A stretch of DNA of 24,513 nt from a virus, in the UHGV virus genome UHGV-0864142. One strand, written 5' to 3'. Numbering within the stretch: the first letter of the stretch is position 1; each line of letters opens with the position of its first letter. Shown piece by piece: positions 20,129 to 24,513 of the stretch. Under the pieces are notes generated by a model that was given only the letters and a program-made list of their open reading frames with translations, did not search any database and had not been told where the DNA came from. Position numbers and translations under genes: made by a program.

Positions 20129-21008
20129 CGTGTTCACCCTCACGAACTTTCAGGTAGGTATTGTCGTTAAGCAGGAAATCAAATCCCTTTTTGTGCCAGA
20201 CGGTTCCGCGCTGATGGTTTGGGCGCTCTTCGAACATCCATCGGCAATTTTCGCCTACGTAGCTCAAATAATTTCTCCAGTCCTGCATCGTGAAACCATG
20301 CCCGTCAAGCTGTCGGGTTATCACTCCGGCTTTGCGCCAGAACGTTCGGATCTGGTTTTTACGCTTGTCATTCAGTGCGCGGATTCTTGGCGCTTCAGGA
20401 AGGATTTCGTGGTAAGCATCGACAACATCCTGACAGCTGACGGAAGGTTTTTTCTTGTCAGACTTTTTGTCTGCTGTAGCACTCTCTAATACGTCAGTAT
20501 TAGAGATATTATTTATATTATTGTTTATGGACAACCGTTGGACAACCGTTGGACAATCTCCGCTGAGAGCCGCACCATTACTGGTGTTTGCGTTGGACAA
20601 CTGTTGGACAACCGTTGGACAATTTTTTGCCTGAAAATCGTCATATTTAACGATTGTAAACAGGCTAAATTTCTTCCCCATCGAGCAAATATTAAGCATC
20701 CCTTTCGACTCAAAAGTCCGTAATAAGCTCCGAACTTTGTTGTCAGGGATGAATGTTTCTCTGACCAGAGACGGGCGTCCAGTTATCATCTGACCGCGAT
20801 CAACAGTTATCGGACCGATATCCGTATTGACGACAGTAGATTCGTGATTAGCCTTGAGGATTAAGTGAAGCCAAAGATGTACTGCCTGAGAGTCCTTATA
20901 GAGCCTGCTGTCCATAAACTGGCGGTGTATAGAGACATACCCCATACTGGATGCCTCCTGATGTTGTACAGGGTTATGCCTGTAATCAGCTAACTTAACG
21001 ACGCCCAT
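20118..21008 (-). CDS. Replication initiator, lambda O / P22 gene 18-like (296 aa), with origin iterons inside the coding sequence
   Basis: Sits where lambdoid O sits (after cII, before the helicase). Iterons fall in its central linker. ATG 21008 with GGAG SD. Confidence 0.8.
   Translation of the reverse strand: MGVVKLADYRHNPVQHQEASSMGYVSIHRQFMDSRLYKDSQAVHLWLHLILKANHESTVVNTDIGPITVDRGQMITGRPSLVRETFIPDNKVRSLLRTFESKGMLNICSMGKKFSLFTIVKYDDFQAKNCPTVVQQLSNANTSNGAALSGDCPTVVQRLSINNNINNISNTDVLESATADKKSDKKKPSVSCQDVVDAYHEILPEAPRIRALNDKRKNQIRTFWRKAGVITRQLDGHGFTMQDWRNYLSYVGENCRWMFEERPNHQRGTVWHKKGFDFLLNDNTYLKVREGEHDDR
20529..20626. repeat. Replication origin iterons: six about 11-bp direct repeats (GGACAAC[C/T]GTT) in two triplets, flanked by an AT-rich stretch (about 20487-20528)
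   Basis: Read directly: GGACAACCGTTGGACAACCGTTGGACAA at 20529-20556 and GGACAACTGTTGGACAACCGTTGGACAA at 20595-20622. AT-rich region lies downstream relative to O transcription, as in lambda ori. Confidence 0.75.
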
Positions 21009-21156
21009 GTTTCACTCCTGCTTTGGCTAGTCTGTAAACACCAACAAGGCGCTCTGCGAACGCCCTGTTATTTGCTGCGGCTACCACTAATCCCTCAGGT
21101 GAATCAGGGTGTCGAATCTCTTCTTTTTCCTGGTATTTCTTACGACGTTTTGTCAT
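20995..21156 (-). CDS. Small basic hypothetical protein (53 aa) between cII and O
   Basis: Not in the supplied track. ATG 21156 with GGGAG 5 nt upstream; translates MTKRRKKYQEKEEIRHPDSPEGLVVAAANNRAFAERLVGVYRLAKAGVKHGRR. Overlaps the O start by 14 nt. Confidence 0.4.
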   Translation of the reverse strand: MTKRRKKYQEKEEIRHPDSPEGLVVAAANNRAFAERLVGVYRLAKAGVKHGRR

Positions 21157-21190
21157 AATTACTCCCGTGGATTGATCCAGTCTTTCTACA

Positions 21191-21469
21191 TTAGGCCTCG
21201 AAGAATTCGCCGTTCTTCGGGGCTTTTTCTTTTGTCAGCATTCTGGCTACTTTCTTAGCCAGTTCCGCCAACTCCTCGTCTTCAACACCCCATTCAAGAA
21301 CAGCCAGAAGCATTCCCATTTTTGGGATGAAGCTGTCTTTCCATCGCGAAATTTGCGATTCATTAATCCCTAACGCGTCGGCAACCTTTCGCTGACCACG
21401 TACAGCAATTCGATTCAGGATGTTGCTTGTAATTGCATTCGCTTTCTTGCGAGTACTTGTAAGTTGCAT
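21191..21469 (-). CDS. cII: CII-like transcriptional activator (92 aa)
   Basis: Resembles lambda CII as recalled (ILNRIA..G..K.A...G...SQISRWK...IPK..MLLAVLEWGV.D...A.LA..VA). Confidence 0.85.
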   Translation of the reverse strand: MQLTSTRKKANAITSNILNRIAVRGQRKVADALGINESQISRWKDSFIPKMGMLLAVLEWGVEDEELAELAKKVARMLTKEKAPKNGEFFEA

Positions 21470-21525
21470 ATGTAAGTATTTCCTTAACTAATAAGAAGTT
21501 ATGCGCATCAACTTATGCGCGTTGT

Positions 21526-21571
21526 ATTCCCGCATTTCGGCGGGAATGAGGACCATGACTGTTAAAGAGCG
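21526..21571 (-). promoter_or_regulatory. nutR: boxA (CGCUCUUUAACA) and boxB hairpin (AUUCCCGC-CGAAAU-GCGGGAAU)
   Basis: boxA-like element 8 nt after the cro stop, with a hairpin 12 nt further. The same boxA/boxB pair occurs upstream of N (nutL). Confidence 0.65.
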
Positions 21572-21577
21572 GTGTTA

Positions 21578-21772
21578 CTATTTGTTTTTCTTGTTGCTTG
21601 GGAAAGGACGAACTTCCTCTCCAATCACACTGCCATCAGGCTTTACCGTAACCATGATGTTACGGCCTGCCAGAATGGCCTTGCTGATAGCGCACTGGAT
21701 TACACCAAAGTCACTGGCTGCTTTAGCCTGTCCATGGATTTTGGCGTAATCGGCAAGTGTCATTCGAATCAT
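21578..21772 (-). CDS. cro: Cro repressor (64 aa)
   Basis: Resembles lambda Cro as recalled (ITL.DYA...GQ.K.A.D.GV.Q.AI.KAI.AGR.I......DGSV..EEV.PFPSNKK). ATG 21772 with GGAGAG SD; the track start is a GTG two codons upstream. Confidence 0.85.
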
Positions 21773-21801
21773 ATGCACTCTCCGTTATTAACCATGAACA
21801 A

Positions 21802-21872
21802 AGAATACTACAGGTATTCAAGGCAATCAATACTCAGGGTATTTTTAGTTTAAGTACCTTAGCTATTAGAAT
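21802..21872. promoter_or_regulatory. Right operator region: OR1/OR2/OR3 (AATAC-N5-GTATT) overlapping divergent promoters PR (cro) and PRM (cI)
   Basis: Perfect 15-bp palindromes at 21804-21818 and 21829-21843; degenerate third site at 21853-21867. PR (minus strand): -35 TTGATT, 17-nt spacer, -10 TATTCT. PRM: candidate -10 TAGAAT at 21867-21872, 6 nt before the cI ATG. Confidence 0.65.
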
Positions 21873-21878
21873 TAAGCT

Positions 21879-22595
21879 ATGGAAAATAAAAAATCACTGA
21901 CGACAGAACAGCTCGAAGACGCTAAGCGGCTTAAGGCTTTGTATGAGTCAAAAAAGAAAGAATTGGGAATAACCCAATACTCAATCGCTGATGAACTGGG
22001 TATCACCCAAGGAGCGGTAGGGCATTATCTTAATGGCAGAAATGCGCTAAACGTTGAGGTTGCATCTGGTTTTGCACGATTATTGCAAGTCTCAATTGCT
22101 GATTTTAGCCAGTCAATTGCTGCCAAGGTTGCAGAACAGGCAGAAAGCCTTAAGAGCGATGCCAACGTAAGGTATGCAGGGGAATACAGAGCAGGAAAGA
22201 GGTATCCGGTGTTAAGCAGTATCCAGGCTGGCTCGTGGTGTGAAGCATGCGAACCATACACCATTAAAGACATAGATGTTTGGCTTGAGTCTGACGCGCA
22301 TATTCAAGGTAATGCGTTTTGGCTTAAAGTGGAAGGTGATTCAATGACGGCACCGGTTGGGTTAAGCATTCCAGAGGGAACATTCGTTCTTTTCGATACC
22401 GGAAGGGAGGCGATCAACGGCAGCTTGGTCATAGCAAAACTTTCTGACTCTAACGAAGCAACATTCAAGAAGCTGATAATCGACGGCGGAAATAAATACC
22501 TCAAGGGACTTAACCCTGCATGGCCTCTCGTGCCAATCAATGGAAACTGCAAGATTATAGGCGTTGCAATTGAGACAAAACTAAGGCTGGTTTGA
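21879..22595 (+). CDS. cI: CI-type prophage repressor (HTH plus LexA-like S24 autopeptidase domain), 238 aa
   Basis: Ends resemble lambda CI as recalled (KK.LT.EQLEDA.RLKA.YE.KK.ELG; FWL.VEG.SMTAP; FKKLI.D). Ala-Gly cleavage site (SIQAGSW), catalytic Ser in GDSM and Lys in FKKL. Recognition helix region differs, implying distinct immunity. Confidence 0.92.
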   Translation: MENKKSLTTEQLEDAKRLKALYESKKKELGITQYSIADELGITQGAVGHYLNGRNALNVEVASGFARLLQVSIADFSQSIAAKVAEQAESLKSDANVRYAGEYRAGKRYPVLSSIQAGSWCEACEPYTIKDIDVWLESDAHIQGNAFWLKVEGDSMTAPVGLSIPEGTFVLFDTGREAINGSLVIAKLSDSNEATFKKLIIDGGNKYLKGLNPAWPLVPINGNCKIIGVAIETKLRLV

Positions 22596-22612
22596 TCACG
22601 CAAGGGGCGCTT

Positions 22613-22981
22613 ATGGTTGGAACCGCTATAGCAAGCTTTTTTGGGATGTTGGCAATCTCGACAATTTACGGCTTAGCGCATGCTTTTATTGCGAAATCTC
22701 TATCAGAAAAAATAAGCCAGGCTTGGGCGCATAGATCAGCTCGTTTCATGATTCTGGTGATCATGGCAATACAAGGGATATCTGCATTTTTCCTCTATGG
22801 ATCAAGCTTATACCTATTGTATCAAGGCGCGACATTTACGCCTTACACCAGTGATTACGGAACTCTATACGATGGTAGTGAAGACATCTCTATGGCTTGG
22901 ATTGTCTTTGGTTTATCTATGGCCGTGTCTGTTGTAGCAGACATCATTAAGGTAATTCTCGTCTTAACCTTCGCTGACTAA
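22613..22981 (+). CDS. Three-TM membrane protein (122 aa) in the rex position downstream of cI
   Basis: ATG 22613 with AAGGGG 5 nt upstream, 18 nt after the cI stop. Three long hydrophobic segments. No similarity to RexA/RexB that I recognise. Confidence 0.65.
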   Translation: MVGTAIASFFGMLAISTIYGLAHAFIAKSLSEKISQAWAHRSARFMILVIMAIQGISAFFLYGSSLYLLYQGATFTPYTSDYGTLYDGSEDISMAWIVFGLSMAVSVVADIIKVILVLTFAD

Positions 22982-23068
22982 CCCATAATCCCGGCAGCAA
23001 TAGCTATCGGGATCCACTTCACATATCCCGCATAAAAAGCACTGAACAAGCAGACACCGAAAAAAATA

Positions 23069-23155
23069 AATATCCTTTGTATTCATTTGCTTATCATTAT
23101 TTCACCAAAAATAAATACCTTGGGTATTTACACAATAAAATACCTACAGTATTCT
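23069..23155 (+). promoter_or_regulatory. Left operator region OL with promoter PL (-35 TTTACA 23127-23132, -10 TATTCT 23150-23155)
   Basis: Perfect AATAC-N5-GTATT sites at 23114-23128 and 23139-23153, same half-sites as OR. Weaker third site AATAT-N5-GTATT at 23069-23083. Promoter hexamers overlap the operators. Confidence 0.6.
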
Positions 23156-23200
23156 TTAGCCATCAGCAGGACGCTGGTAGCCAAACGGAACAGATTGGCA

Positions 23201-23242
23201 GGCTCTTTAACATTGATGGGATTGTCCCGCCGAAATGCGGGA
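23201..23242 (+). promoter_or_regulatory. nutL: boxA (GGCTCTTTAACA) and boxB hairpin (UCCCGC-CGAAAU-GCGGGA)
   Basis: Same boxA core and identical boxB loop/stem as nutR, with the same 12-nt boxA-boxB spacing. Lies between PL and N. Confidence 0.65.
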
Positions 23243-23349
23243 ACCAAAGAGTAGTTGGCTTTGGGGTGACGTGAAGTGCAGCTGCACGACGGCAACCGGA
23301 AGATAAGCACCCGGCGCGTCACCGCCAAAGTCAATCATCGGAGGTCAAC

Positions 23350-23649
23350 ATGACAGTAGTCATTACATATCTGGCTGACGATAACGCCAGAAATCGCCGC
23401 AGAGCACGCAGACAGGCTCAACGTGAACAGGCAATGCAAGAGCAGCGACTGGCGCGAAAAATTGCGCTAAAGCTCTCTGGTTGCGTCAGAGCAGACAAAG
23501 CAGCATCACTCGGAAGCCTTCGCTGCAAGAAGGCAGAAGAAGTCGAGCGTAAACAGAACCGTATTTACTACCGCAAGCCACGCAGTGAAATGGGGGTGAC
23601 TTGTGTTGGTCGCCAGAAAATGAAATTAGGCAGCAAACCACTTATTTGA
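23350..23649 (+). CDS. N: N-type transcription antiterminator (99 aa)
   Basis: Arg-rich N-terminal motif (NARNRRRARRQAQREQ). C-terminal ...RKQNRIYYRKPRSEMGVTCVGRQKMKLGSKPLI resembles the lambda N C-terminus (...RKNQRTWYSKPGERGITCSGRQKIKGKSIPLI) as recalled. GGAGG SD. Confidence 0.85.
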   Translation: MTVVITYLADDNARNRRRARRQAQREQAMQEQRLARKIALKLSGCVRADKAASLGSLRCKKAEEVERKQNRIYYRKPRSEMGVTCVGRQKMKLGSKPLI

Positions 23650-23657
23650 GGTGAGAT

Positions 23658-23744
23658 ATGGAAGAAGAATTTGAAGAGTTCGAAGAGCATCCTCAGGATG
23701 TGATGGAACAATACCAGGACTATCCGTATGACTACGACTATTGA
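23658..23744 (+). CDS. Very acidic, aromatic-rich micro-ORF (28 aa) directly after N
   Basis: Not in the supplied track. GAGGTGAGA SD then ATG 23658; translates MEEEFEEFEEHPQDVMEQYQDYPYDYDY. Stop overlaps the next ORF by 17 nt. Confidence 0.35.
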   Translation: MEEEFEEFEEHPQDVMEQYQDYPYDYDY

Positions 23745-23928
23745 TAAAAATCAATGGTGTGGACAATTCAAGCGATGCAATGGATGCAAGCTGCAATCGG
23801 AATGCATGGTTAAGCCTGAAGAAATGTTTCCTGTAATGGAAGATGGGAAATATGTCGATAAATGGGCAATACGAACGACGGCAATGATTGCCAGAGAACT
23901 TGGTAAACAGAATAACAAGGCTGCCTGA
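23728..23928 (+). CDS. Small Cys-rich protein (66 aa), possible zinc ribbon
   Basis: ATG 23728; cysteines C11, C17, C20, C26 (WCGQFKRCNGCKLQSEC). Family not recognised. Confidence 0.5.
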   Translation: MTTTIDKNQWCGQFKRCNGCKLQSECMVKPEEMFPVMEDGKYVDKWAIRTTAMIARELGKQNNKAA

Positions 23929-23968
23929 CGGTGGCCTTTATTTTTGGCATAAACAATATGGGGTAAAA

Positions 23969-24295
23969 ATGAAAGTTTTAATGGTTTATGAAAATGTTCC
24001 AGAGTCGACTGAAATCTATATTTTTGATGCCAATGAAGATGAAGTTAACGATTTGAAATTGTCTCACGGCAATTACACAAATGCTAATTGTGATGAAAGT
24101 ATCGAAAAAGCACTATCACGTGTTCTTGTCAGAATTAGTGATCCAGAACATTGTGATGATGATTGGCTTTCTTATTGTGGAGCGGTAAAAACTGATGCAG
24201 GAAAATGGAGTAAAAGTAAAGTTGATAACTCAACTCCAATCATTATGAAAGATAGCGATATTGAAATGGTAATAATAACCGGAATGATTATGTAG
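23969..24295 (+). CDS. Hypothetical acidic protein (108 aa) in an AT-rich segment
   Basis: ATG 23969 with GGGG 5 nt upstream; the track ORF starts earlier at a TTG. The region looks AT-rich by eye compared with the rest of the prophage. Confidence 0.55.
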   Translation: MKVLMVYENVPESTEIYIFDANEDEVNDLKLSHGNYTNANCDESIEKALSRVLVRISDPEHCDDDWLSYCGAVKTDAGKWSKSKVDNSTPIIMKDSDIEMVIITGMIM

Positions 24296-24401
24296 GCTGC
24301 GAATAAGCACTGTGTATTCATTCCAACGAGTGAATACACGGAGCAATGTCGCTCGTAACTAAACAGGAGCCGACTTGTTCTGATTATTGGAAATCTTCTT
24401 T

Positions 24402-24428
24402 GCCCTCTAATGTGAGGGCGATTTTTTT
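24402..24428 (+). terminator. Intrinsic terminator (GCCCTC-TAATGT-GAGGGC then GATTTTTTTG) within the PL operon
   Basis: Perfect 6-bp GC-rich stem followed by a T7 run, 12 nt before the next RBS and ATG. Expected to be bypassed by N antitermination. Confidence 0.65.
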
Positions 24429-24440
24429 GACGGAGGATAT

Positions 24441-24513
24441 ATGAGTGAAGTAACAGACTTAGTTGTTATTGAAAAAGCAAATGCAATGACTGTATTTCAG
24501 TCTGCCGACCAGA
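24441..24513 (+). CDS. Start of a further early-left-operon gene (first 24 codons; runs off window end)
   Basis: GGAGG SD at 24432-24436, ATG 24441, open to the window end (MSEVTDLVVIEKANAMTVFQSADQ...). Product unknown. Confidence 0.4.
   Translation, partial: MSEVTDLVVIEKANAMTVFQSADQ

Follow-up and report, generated by a model that had tools for sequence, protein, structure and literature searches.

hkaS, a gene for a predicted three-helix membrane protein in the rex slot of HK620-type prophages: an accessory gene of one immunity module and a candidate for superinfection exclusion

Background

The interval between the repressor gene cI and N is a mosaic hotspot that holds rexAB in phage lambda and bstA in phage BTP1, both abortive-infection systems that are read with the repressor (PMC8585504), and genes located behind the repressor in P22-like phages are routinely assumed to be expressed from the prophage (PMC2629481). 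In the viral DNA analyzed here (UHGV virus genome UHGV-0864142; a stretch of 24,513 nucleotides, hereafter the window), this interval is occupied by a single gene for a small, apparently membrane-embedded protein, which raises the question of what such a protein does in this position. A preliminary description, made from the sequence alone, considered the gene a strong candidate for an exclusion function.

The gene between cI and OL

Judging from its sequence, the window belongs to a P22-like (Lederbergvirus-type) prophage of Escherichia coli; 53-65% of its length is covered, at ~96% identity, by phiv205-1, Kapi1, CUS-3 and HK620. The map is reversed compared to the usual lambda map: the minus strand carries the helicase gene, an O-like replication gene, cII and cro, and the plus strand carries cI. 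The immunity region of 1.6 kb is 98.6-99.1% identical to the corresponding regions of HF4s, phi296/phi367, mEpX2, HZ41, HK140, HK620 and HK630. The operators OR1-OR3 (21803-21868), which are also present in the HK620 annotation, are located between the minus-strand cro gene and cI, and the operator pattern AATACN5GTATT is found there without mismatches at 21804-21818 and 21829-21843 and with two mismatches at 21853-21867. They are followed by the gene for the cI-type prophage repressor (21879-22595, plus strand; 238 aa; Pfam HTH_3, 8e-10, and Peptidase_S24, 5e-24; PHROG 4, transcriptional repressor), the product of which differs from HK620 cI in one of the 238 amino acids. Across a 17-nt spacer (22596-22612) that contains the Shine-Dalgarno sequence AAGGGG (22602-22607) lies the gene in question (22613-22981, plus strand), and its 369 nt correspond to 122 aa plus the stop codon, exactly as originally delineated. 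It ends ~85 nt short of the OL operators, namely the operator-like 17-mer AAATATCCTTTGTATTC (23067-23083; one mismatch to the operator pattern), which is probably the true OL3, OL2 (23113-23129) and OL1 (23138-23154), the latter two on the plus strand and identified by the operator pattern and the HK620 record. Then come the promoter PL (TTTACA-17-TATTCT, 23127-23155, plus strand; consensus scan and HK620 record) and the gene for an N-like antiterminator (23350-23649, plus strand; PHROG 271, 4.8e-37, with a weak match to Pfam N_peptide), which opens the PL operon and delimits the slot on its far side. The gene in question is thus located between cI and OL/PL, on the cI strand, which is indeed the slot of lambda rexAB, as had been proposed. 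No known RNA family was detected at E <= 1 in the scanned part of the window (20500-24513).

The program-made list of open reading frames runs this frame up to a TTG codon at 22592. The ATG at 22613 appears to be the real start because AAGGGG precedes it by 5 nt and because, in the Salmonella lineage, an in-frame TAA is located directly before the ATG; either AAGGA or AAGGGG is found at the same distance from the ATG in every diverged relative.

The same open reading frame is annotated as the gene hkaS, with the product 'unknown', in the HK620 record (AF335538), where it lies between cI and a feature labelled 'tIMM; termination of cI transcript'; the HkaS proteins of the window and of HK620 share 96% amino-acid identity. 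Over its whole length (positions 1-122 of 122, E 2.3e-78), the protein matches PHROG 6534, a family whose function is unannotated. Hence, the preliminary statement that the protein belongs to no family holds for curated functional libraries, but the gene has a name and its product a PHROG. All database names retrieved for the homologs, which come from E. coli, Salmonella enterica, Enterobacter hormaechei/cloacae and Hafnia paralvei, are 'hypothetical protein'. Our literature searches found no paper linking hkaS with HK620, the bare name 'hkaS' matched fungal herbarium codes only, and the gene is unmentioned in the literature retrieved on HK620 relatives, SieA, BstA and lambdoid co-transfer. 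hkaS is a bona fide gene that has been annotated without a function since the deposition of the HK620 genome.

Probable transcription with the repressor gene

The orientation of hkaS on the cI strand, the short gap between the two genes, the consensus scan that detected neither a promoter nor a terminator between them, and the placement of tIMM downstream of hkaS in HK620 lead us to infer that hkaS is co-transcribed with cI from PRM. The hexamers of the candidate PRM, a -35 element TTTAGT (21844-21849) and a -10 element TAGAAT (21867-21872), were read by eye from the sequence; the consensus promoter scan, which is tuned to strong promoters, missed them. The TAGAAT hexamer is located 6 nt before the cI ATG and would put the PRM start on, or adjacent to, the A of this codon, which suggests that cI mRNA made from the candidate PRM is leaderless. 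The cI mRNA produced from PRM in lambda is leaderless as well. Given a leaderless cI and a strong Shine-Dalgarno sequence in front of hkaS, HkaS could be translated more efficiently than the repressor from one and the same transcript.

The 3' end of the cI-hkaS transcript is uncertain. A scan for a canonical intrinsic terminator after hkaS found none. A stem-loop (22988-23013, plus strand) begins 7 nt 3' of the hkaS stop codon. Its stem, 7 bp and then 3 bp, is interrupted by a single bulged base on either side, its loop is AAUA, and no U tract follows; the fold of the segment 22975-23066 has an energy of -15.3 kcal/mol (z = -2.1). Hairpins of different sequence are found at the same site in the Salmonella, Hafnia-type and L008 lineages, with z values from -2.1 to -3.4 and none with a U tract (the positions are about 5381-5421 in L004, about 5383-5412 in L008 and about 1832-1859 in L010). 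The element could be a 3'-end or stabilizer element, a processing site or a Rho-dependent stop. The tIMM of HK620 is placed ~60 nt beyond this hairpin (about 23063-23093), over an AT-rich palindrome, and the stretch that it covers overlaps AAATATCCTTTGTATTC, which is kept in all diverged lineages. Given that this 17-mer is operator-like and conserved whereas the stretch that matches the OL3 annotated in HK620 (about 23090-23106) is neither, both OL3 and tIMM may be misplaced in the GenBank record of HK620.

The 3' end of hkaS is overlapped by a 40-aa Cys-rich open reading frame on the minus strand (22964-23086) that begins within the OL3-like site and has been called as a protein in HF4s. Because its frame is broken in HK620 and interrupted by early stops in all other lineages, we consider it a chance open reading frame.

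Predicted membrane topology of HkaS

The three transmembrane (TM) helices of the preliminary description are seen both in the hydropathy profile and in a structural model. The Kyte-Doolittle values of 19-residue windows exceed 1.6 in three stretches (residues about 1-27, 42-70 and 91-122), and the AlphaFold2 model, built from a seven-sequence alignment (mean pLDDT 92.5, pTM 0.77), contains helices at residues 2-29, 31-38, 41-73 and 89-121 and a short beta-hairpin at 78-86. Accordingly, TM1 is assigned to aa 2-27 (22616-22693), followed by a basic loop with a short amphipathic helix (aa 28-44; 22694-22744), TM2 (aa 45-70; 22745-22822), an acidic, Tyr/Gly-rich loop with the beta-hairpin (aa 71-92; 22823-22888) and, finally, TM3 together with an invariant C-terminal motif, D-x-x-K-x-I-x-V-L-T-F-A-D (aa 93-122; 22889-22978). 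In all eight lineage representatives, the first loop contains 3-5 Lys and Arg residues and has a net charge of +3 to +5, and the second loop contains 0-1 such residues and has a net charge of -1 to -4. Under the positive-inside rule, these charges place the N-terminus and the second loop in the periplasm and the first loop and the C-terminus in the cytoplasm. Topology prediction, a check already suggested when the gene was first described, thus yields an N-out/C-in charge pattern that is kept across the eight representatives and, combined with hydropathy and the AlphaFold model, points to an inner-membrane location of HkaS.

Class I holins, such as S105 of lambda, are proteins of about 100-120 aa with three TM helices and an N-out/C-in topology, and HkaS resembles them in size, number of TM helices and predicted topology. 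Unlike these holins, HkaS has no charged cytoplasmic C-terminal tail and no match to a PHROG holin family, and hkaS lies in the probable lysogeny operon rather than in the lysis cassette. A holin expressed constitutively would kill the lysogen.

Selection and pattern of conservation

All HkaS homologs, down to 52% identity, consist of 122 aa and align without gaps. Between the window and the Hafnia-type lineage, the dS values of hkaS and cI are similar (0.70 and 0.76, respectively), which implies a shared history of the two genes, and the dN/dS ratio is 0.136 for hkaS vs 0.029 for cI. In the 80 sequences of the E. coli clade, piS is 0.031 for hkaS and 0.026 for cI, piN/piS is 0.235 and 0.014, respectively, a 17-fold difference, and there are 19 protein variants of HkaS vs 6 of cI. 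At the protein level, hkaS evolves ~4-5 times faster than cI, and its dN is 4-6 times higher. The frame is open and its length identical across lineages in which the cI DNA is only 75-77% identical; it is intact in 80 of the 80 IMG/VR loci kept by the search. Among the database proteins, the intact 122/129-aa clusters have 525, 53 and 45 members (623 altogether) and the clusters of truncated or frameshifted variants 1-2 members each, so that ~99% of the members are intact. Taken together, the dN/dS and piN/piS values, the intact frames and the constant length show that hkaS is under purifying selection that is clearly weaker than the selection on cI. There was no sign of positive selection in hkaS; the changes within the clade are mostly conservative exchanges inside the helices, and in the periplasmic loop they are few and conservative, while dS is saturated in the pairs that differ in this loop.

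The relaxed constraint could be taken to mean that hkaS is a hitch-hiking open reading frame, a near-neutral passenger of an immunity module that recombines as a block. The excess of dN and of piN/piS over cI would fit, as would the slightly lower GC content of hkaS (42% vs 45% for cI), the tiny size of the family and the existence of a viable phage with a frameshifted copy (see below). We nevertheless find this explanation very improbable: dN/dS is well below 1 with dS near or beyond saturation, and a frame of identical length that is preserved in every IMG/VR locus and nearly all database members, with 41 invariant columns clustered in motifs, speaks against a passenger.

The exception mentioned above involves a run of six A residues inside hkaS (22707-22712, plus strand; codons 32-34). 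Phage HF4s has five instead of six, a 1-nt deletion that causes a frameshift and truncates HkaS after TM1. Unless this is a sequencing error, hkaS is dispensable for lytic growth given that HF4s is an isolated phage. The frame is lost at the same point, after residue 32, in a 44-aa protein from the databases (P0014). Such A6 frameshifts could be natural knock-outs, the result of a slippage hot spot or artefacts of sequencing.

The invariant positions, which were counted from the list of invariant columns in the eight lineage representatives, are distributed unevenly over the protein. They account for 33% of the columns in TM1 (residues 1-27), 47% in cytoplasmic loop 1 (28-44), 38% in TM2 (45-70), 14% in periplasmic loop 2 (71-92), 12% in the outer part of TM3 (93-109) and 69% in the inner end of TM3 with the C-terminus (110-122). 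Three motifs stand out: LSxKxxQxWxH[RK]xARFxIL spans loop 1 and the beginning of TM2, SxYxLY marks the outer end of TM2, and the C-terminus has DxxKxIxVLTFAD. The helices also contain invariant polar residues, S8, S16 and Y19 in TM1, Q54 in TM2, and D110 and K113 in TM3, and S16/Y19, Q54 and D110/K113 lie at a similar depth in the inner leaflet, as estimated by counting residues rather than from model coordinates.

The conservation on the cytoplasmic side fits the recognition of phages no better than it fits a host partner or a structural role. HkaS might therefore modulate the physiology of the host or of the prophage, with a face at the cytoplasmic leaflet, formed by the loop LSxKxxQxWxH[RK]xARF and the tail DxxKxIxVLTFAD, that binds a conserved inner-membrane protein of the host, such as a protease, a transporter or a sensor kinase, and alters stress tolerance, envelope physiology or the stability of lysogeny. 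The likeness of this conserved side across prophages of E. coli, Salmonella, Enterobacter and Hafnia speaks for such a role, and the absence of homology to known small-membrane-protein regulators speaks against it; on balance, we regard it as a somewhat unlikely explanation, to which the distribution of the gene is relevant as well.

A small family tied to one repressor clade

The HkaS family is small. A word-indexed search of 5.8 billion clusters returned 12 HkaS clusters, all at least 52% identical, and an exhaustive hmmsearch of 1.84 billion representatives at 50% identity returned one cluster and the 44-aa fragment; none of the GTDB species-representative genomes was found to encode HkaS. 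The order cro (minus strand), cI, hkaS and N (all plus strand) is invariant in the diverged loci, that is, the Salmonella and Hafnia-type loci and more distant variants in metagenome assemblies, and the gap between cI and hkaS measures 17-20 nt in all lineages. The cI-hkaS segment is present in 146 of 5426 complete E. coli genomes (~2.7%), so that hkaS is found in all 146 genomes that have this cI; each match covers at least 80% of the query and hence spans into both genes, and the matches listed are full length throughout. In IMG/VR, cI is located 17-19 nt upstream of hkaS in all 79 loci that have upstream sequence. In the phage collection, 16 records encode a cI that is at least 99% identical, and these include all 16 hkaS-positive records among the matches listed.

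More distant relatives of this cI have a different content in the slot. Serratia phage OS31 (71% cI identity) has 535 bp after cI with no annotated gene or long plus-strand open reading frame, BHUENT3 (65%) is absent from the hkaS matches, the slot is empty in mEp213 (51%), and 434 and Sf101 (52%) carry hex instead of hkaS. Given that the cI relatives at 71%, 65% and 51% identity function with the slot empty, the repressor does not need a slot gene. The carriers of hkaS span P22-like phages (HK620, HF4s), other lambdoid phages (mEpX2, HK140, HK630) and Stx-converting phages, which indicates that the gene belongs to the immunity module and not to a virion type. It seems that a single acquisition, in the ancestor of this cI clade, brought in hkaS and that the gene has been retained since.

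For the possible binding of a host protein by the conserved cytoplasmic-leaflet face, the strict tie to one cI clade and the retention of hkaS in diverged loci would count in favor, and the functioning of related repressors with an empty slot would count against.

Comparison with known slot genes and exclusion proteins

Lambda RexB (PF15968) is the obvious protein to compare with HkaS. Its gene, too, occupies the interval from cI to OL, has the orientation of cI and is taken to be read from the repressor promoters, and RexB is likewise a small polytopic inner-membrane protein without an enzymatic domain. The differences are equally clear: RexB consists of 144 aa and has four helices, as opposed to 122 aa and three predicted helices in HkaS, the two proteins share no sequence or profile similarity, and hkaS has no rexA-like partner, being the sole gene between cI and OL, with no conserved open reading frame in the 85-nt spacer. 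We tried and rejected a relationship between the two; the Pfam RexB profile matches lambda RexB (8.5e-92, the control) and fails to match HkaS, and hhalign gives a probability of 0.6%. HkaS could still be an analog of RexB, an abortive-infection effector without a RexA-type sensor, in which an oligomer would form a gated ion or proton path lined by S16/Y19, Q54 and D110/K113 that a phage product opens, so that the membrane potential collapses. We consider this doubtful. Apart from the lack of homology and the different number of helices, the operon contains no partner gene, and HkaS exposes next to no soluble surface that could sense an infection; moreover, the depth and clustering of the polar residues are estimates from residue numbering, not from model coordinates. 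RexB also affects ClpP-dependent proteolysis, a precedent that bears rather on an action of HkaS on host or prophage physiology.

Inner-membrane superinfection-exclusion proteins include T4 Imm, HK97 gp15 and lactococcal Sie2009. Proteins of the SieA, Imm and gp15 type, which are encoded by phages or prophages and made in the cell that they protect, are, like HkaS, small and membrane-embedded and require no partner, and they act at the inner membrane on incoming DNA or ejection proteins; unlike them, HkaS has no PHROG or PADLOC match to this type. SieA of P22 is a single small inner-membrane protein that blocks DNA delivery alone, and the SieA types are extremely diverse in sequence (PMC10883804). 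The sieA gene differs from hkaS in location, as it lies in the immI/ant region and has its own promoter, whereas hkaS is located behind cI.

With regard to position, BstA of BTP1 provides a close parallel. Its gene directly follows the repressor gene, is highly expressed in lysogens and keeps its synteny across many prophages (PMC8585504). Both bstA and hkaS are single genes immediately downstream of a prophage repressor, but BstA, which acts in abortive infection, is large, soluble and associated with DNA and comes with a DNA element for self-immunity, aba, whereas HkaS is a predicted membrane protein of 122 aa.

Hex of 434 and Sf101, annotated as a 'repressor protection protein', is encoded by a single gene for 134 aa in the same slot, in the closest gene-bearing cI clade (52%). 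By the same hydropathy test, Hex has only a signal-like hydrophobic stretch at the N-terminus and no TM helices, and it has no Pfam match; being unrelated in sequence and not multi-pass, it was rejected as an analog of HkaS. Its annotation as a shield of the repressor from RecA-dependent cleavage adds some weight to a role of the slot gene in host or prophage physiology. The N-terminus of Hex (L095, lambda imm434, 2409-2813; L096, Sf101) is a signal-peptide-like segment (MIRIAALLSILLTTSANSEC...), which suggests an exported protein or a lipoprotein; this would be odd for an annotated protector of the repressor from RecA.

All in all, hkaS can be described as an uncharacterised accessory gene in the rex slot that, judging from the layout, is likely to be expressed in the lysogen.

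A possible role in exclusion

From its position and the analogy with rexAB, bstA and hex, hkaS is a reasonable but unproven anti-phage candidate. The initial assessment of the gene as a strong exclusion candidate is thus retained in part: the rex-slot position stands, but no link in sequence or structure to known exclusion or abortive-infection proteins was found. Searches against Pfam (E <= 1), NCBIfam and PDB profiles returned no defense or functional homolog, and none of the families of PADLOC-DB 2.0.0 matched at E <= 10. In PHROGs, the only match is to the unannotated PHROG 6534 of HkaS itself; the next ones have E values of 0.13 and 0.17, and no exclusion, holin or membrane family was among the matches. 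The fold searches, against solved and predicted structures, yielded no specific structural match. The same profile and structure searches, which had been proposed as a check when the gene was first described, also detected no match to a housekeeping or structural family. In the literature, we found no report of an exclusion phenotype for hkaS.

The reading that we rank highest, with a rough probability of 0.4, is that HkaS protects the lysogen by superinfection exclusion at the membrane. In this tentative model, hkaS is an accessory gene (a 'moron') of the HK620-type immunity module that would be expressed on the cI mRNA, starting at PRE while lysogeny is being established and at PRM in the lysogen, and translated from its own strong ribosome-binding site. 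HkaS would form a compact bundle of three helices in the inner membrane, with the N-terminus and the acidic Tyr/Gly-rich hairpin loop in the periplasm and the basic loop and the invariant hydrophobic tail VLTFAD in the cytoplasm. It would most likely act by hindering incoming phage DNA or ejection proteins in crossing the inner membrane, either directly, via the fast-evolving half on the periplasmic side, or by occupying one of the host's inner-membrane proteins via the conserved face at the cytoplasmic leaflet.

Besides the record of the slot, which is known for lysogen-expressed anti-phage genes (rexAB of lambda and bstA of BTP1, with hex in 434), the exclusion model is in line with the variability of the periplasmic loop and the outer part of TM3, the least conserved parts of HkaS (14% and 12% invariant), as expected of regions that meet changing phage proteins. 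Several observations weigh against it. The strongest conservation is cytoplasmic (47% in loop 1 and 69% in residues 110-122), not periplasmic, where an incoming phage would be met; the faster evolution of hkaS comes without a sign of positive selection; the linkage to cI, across 17 nt, could be purely physical; and HkaS lacks similarity to the known exclusion and defense families in all of the above searches.

A bolder version, in which HkaS is a self-contained defense without a separate sensor that both detects an incoming phage component and responds to it alone, by blocking entry or by opening an ion path through Q54, D110 and K113, appears improbable to us. If true, it would define a new single-protein family of exclusion or abortive-infection factors specific to one lambdoid immunity module, and a minimal three-helix defense protein would be a simple model for the membrane block, or for the sensing, of phage entry. 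Any phenotype that hkaS confers on lysogens would be widespread, given its presence in ~2.7% of the complete E. coli genomes and in Stx-converting, P22-like and other lambdoid phages. At present, hkaS is a well-defined and easily testable candidate, and one that would not surprise a phage biologist.

The far edge of the slot

Many relatives (L019, L023-L025, L036 and L038, the latter being HK140) diverge from the window just upstream of the N start (23339-23349, after ...CAAAGTCAAT). In these relatives, the stretch up to the next start codon is ~90-350 bp longer, and the distance between hkaS and OL2 remains constant at 130-132 nt. Given that the divergence begins at this point while the spacing between hkaS and OL2 holds, the mosaic joint is located at the N start and not beside hkaS. 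Directly after N, the window encodes an extremely acidic peptide of 28 aa, MEEEFEEFEEHPQDVMEQYQDYPYDYDY (23658-23744, plus strand), with its own Shine-Dalgarno sequence; it matches the unannotated PHROG 16060 (E 7e-19), and its gene overlaps the start of a homolog of ral, the restriction alleviation gene (23728-23928).
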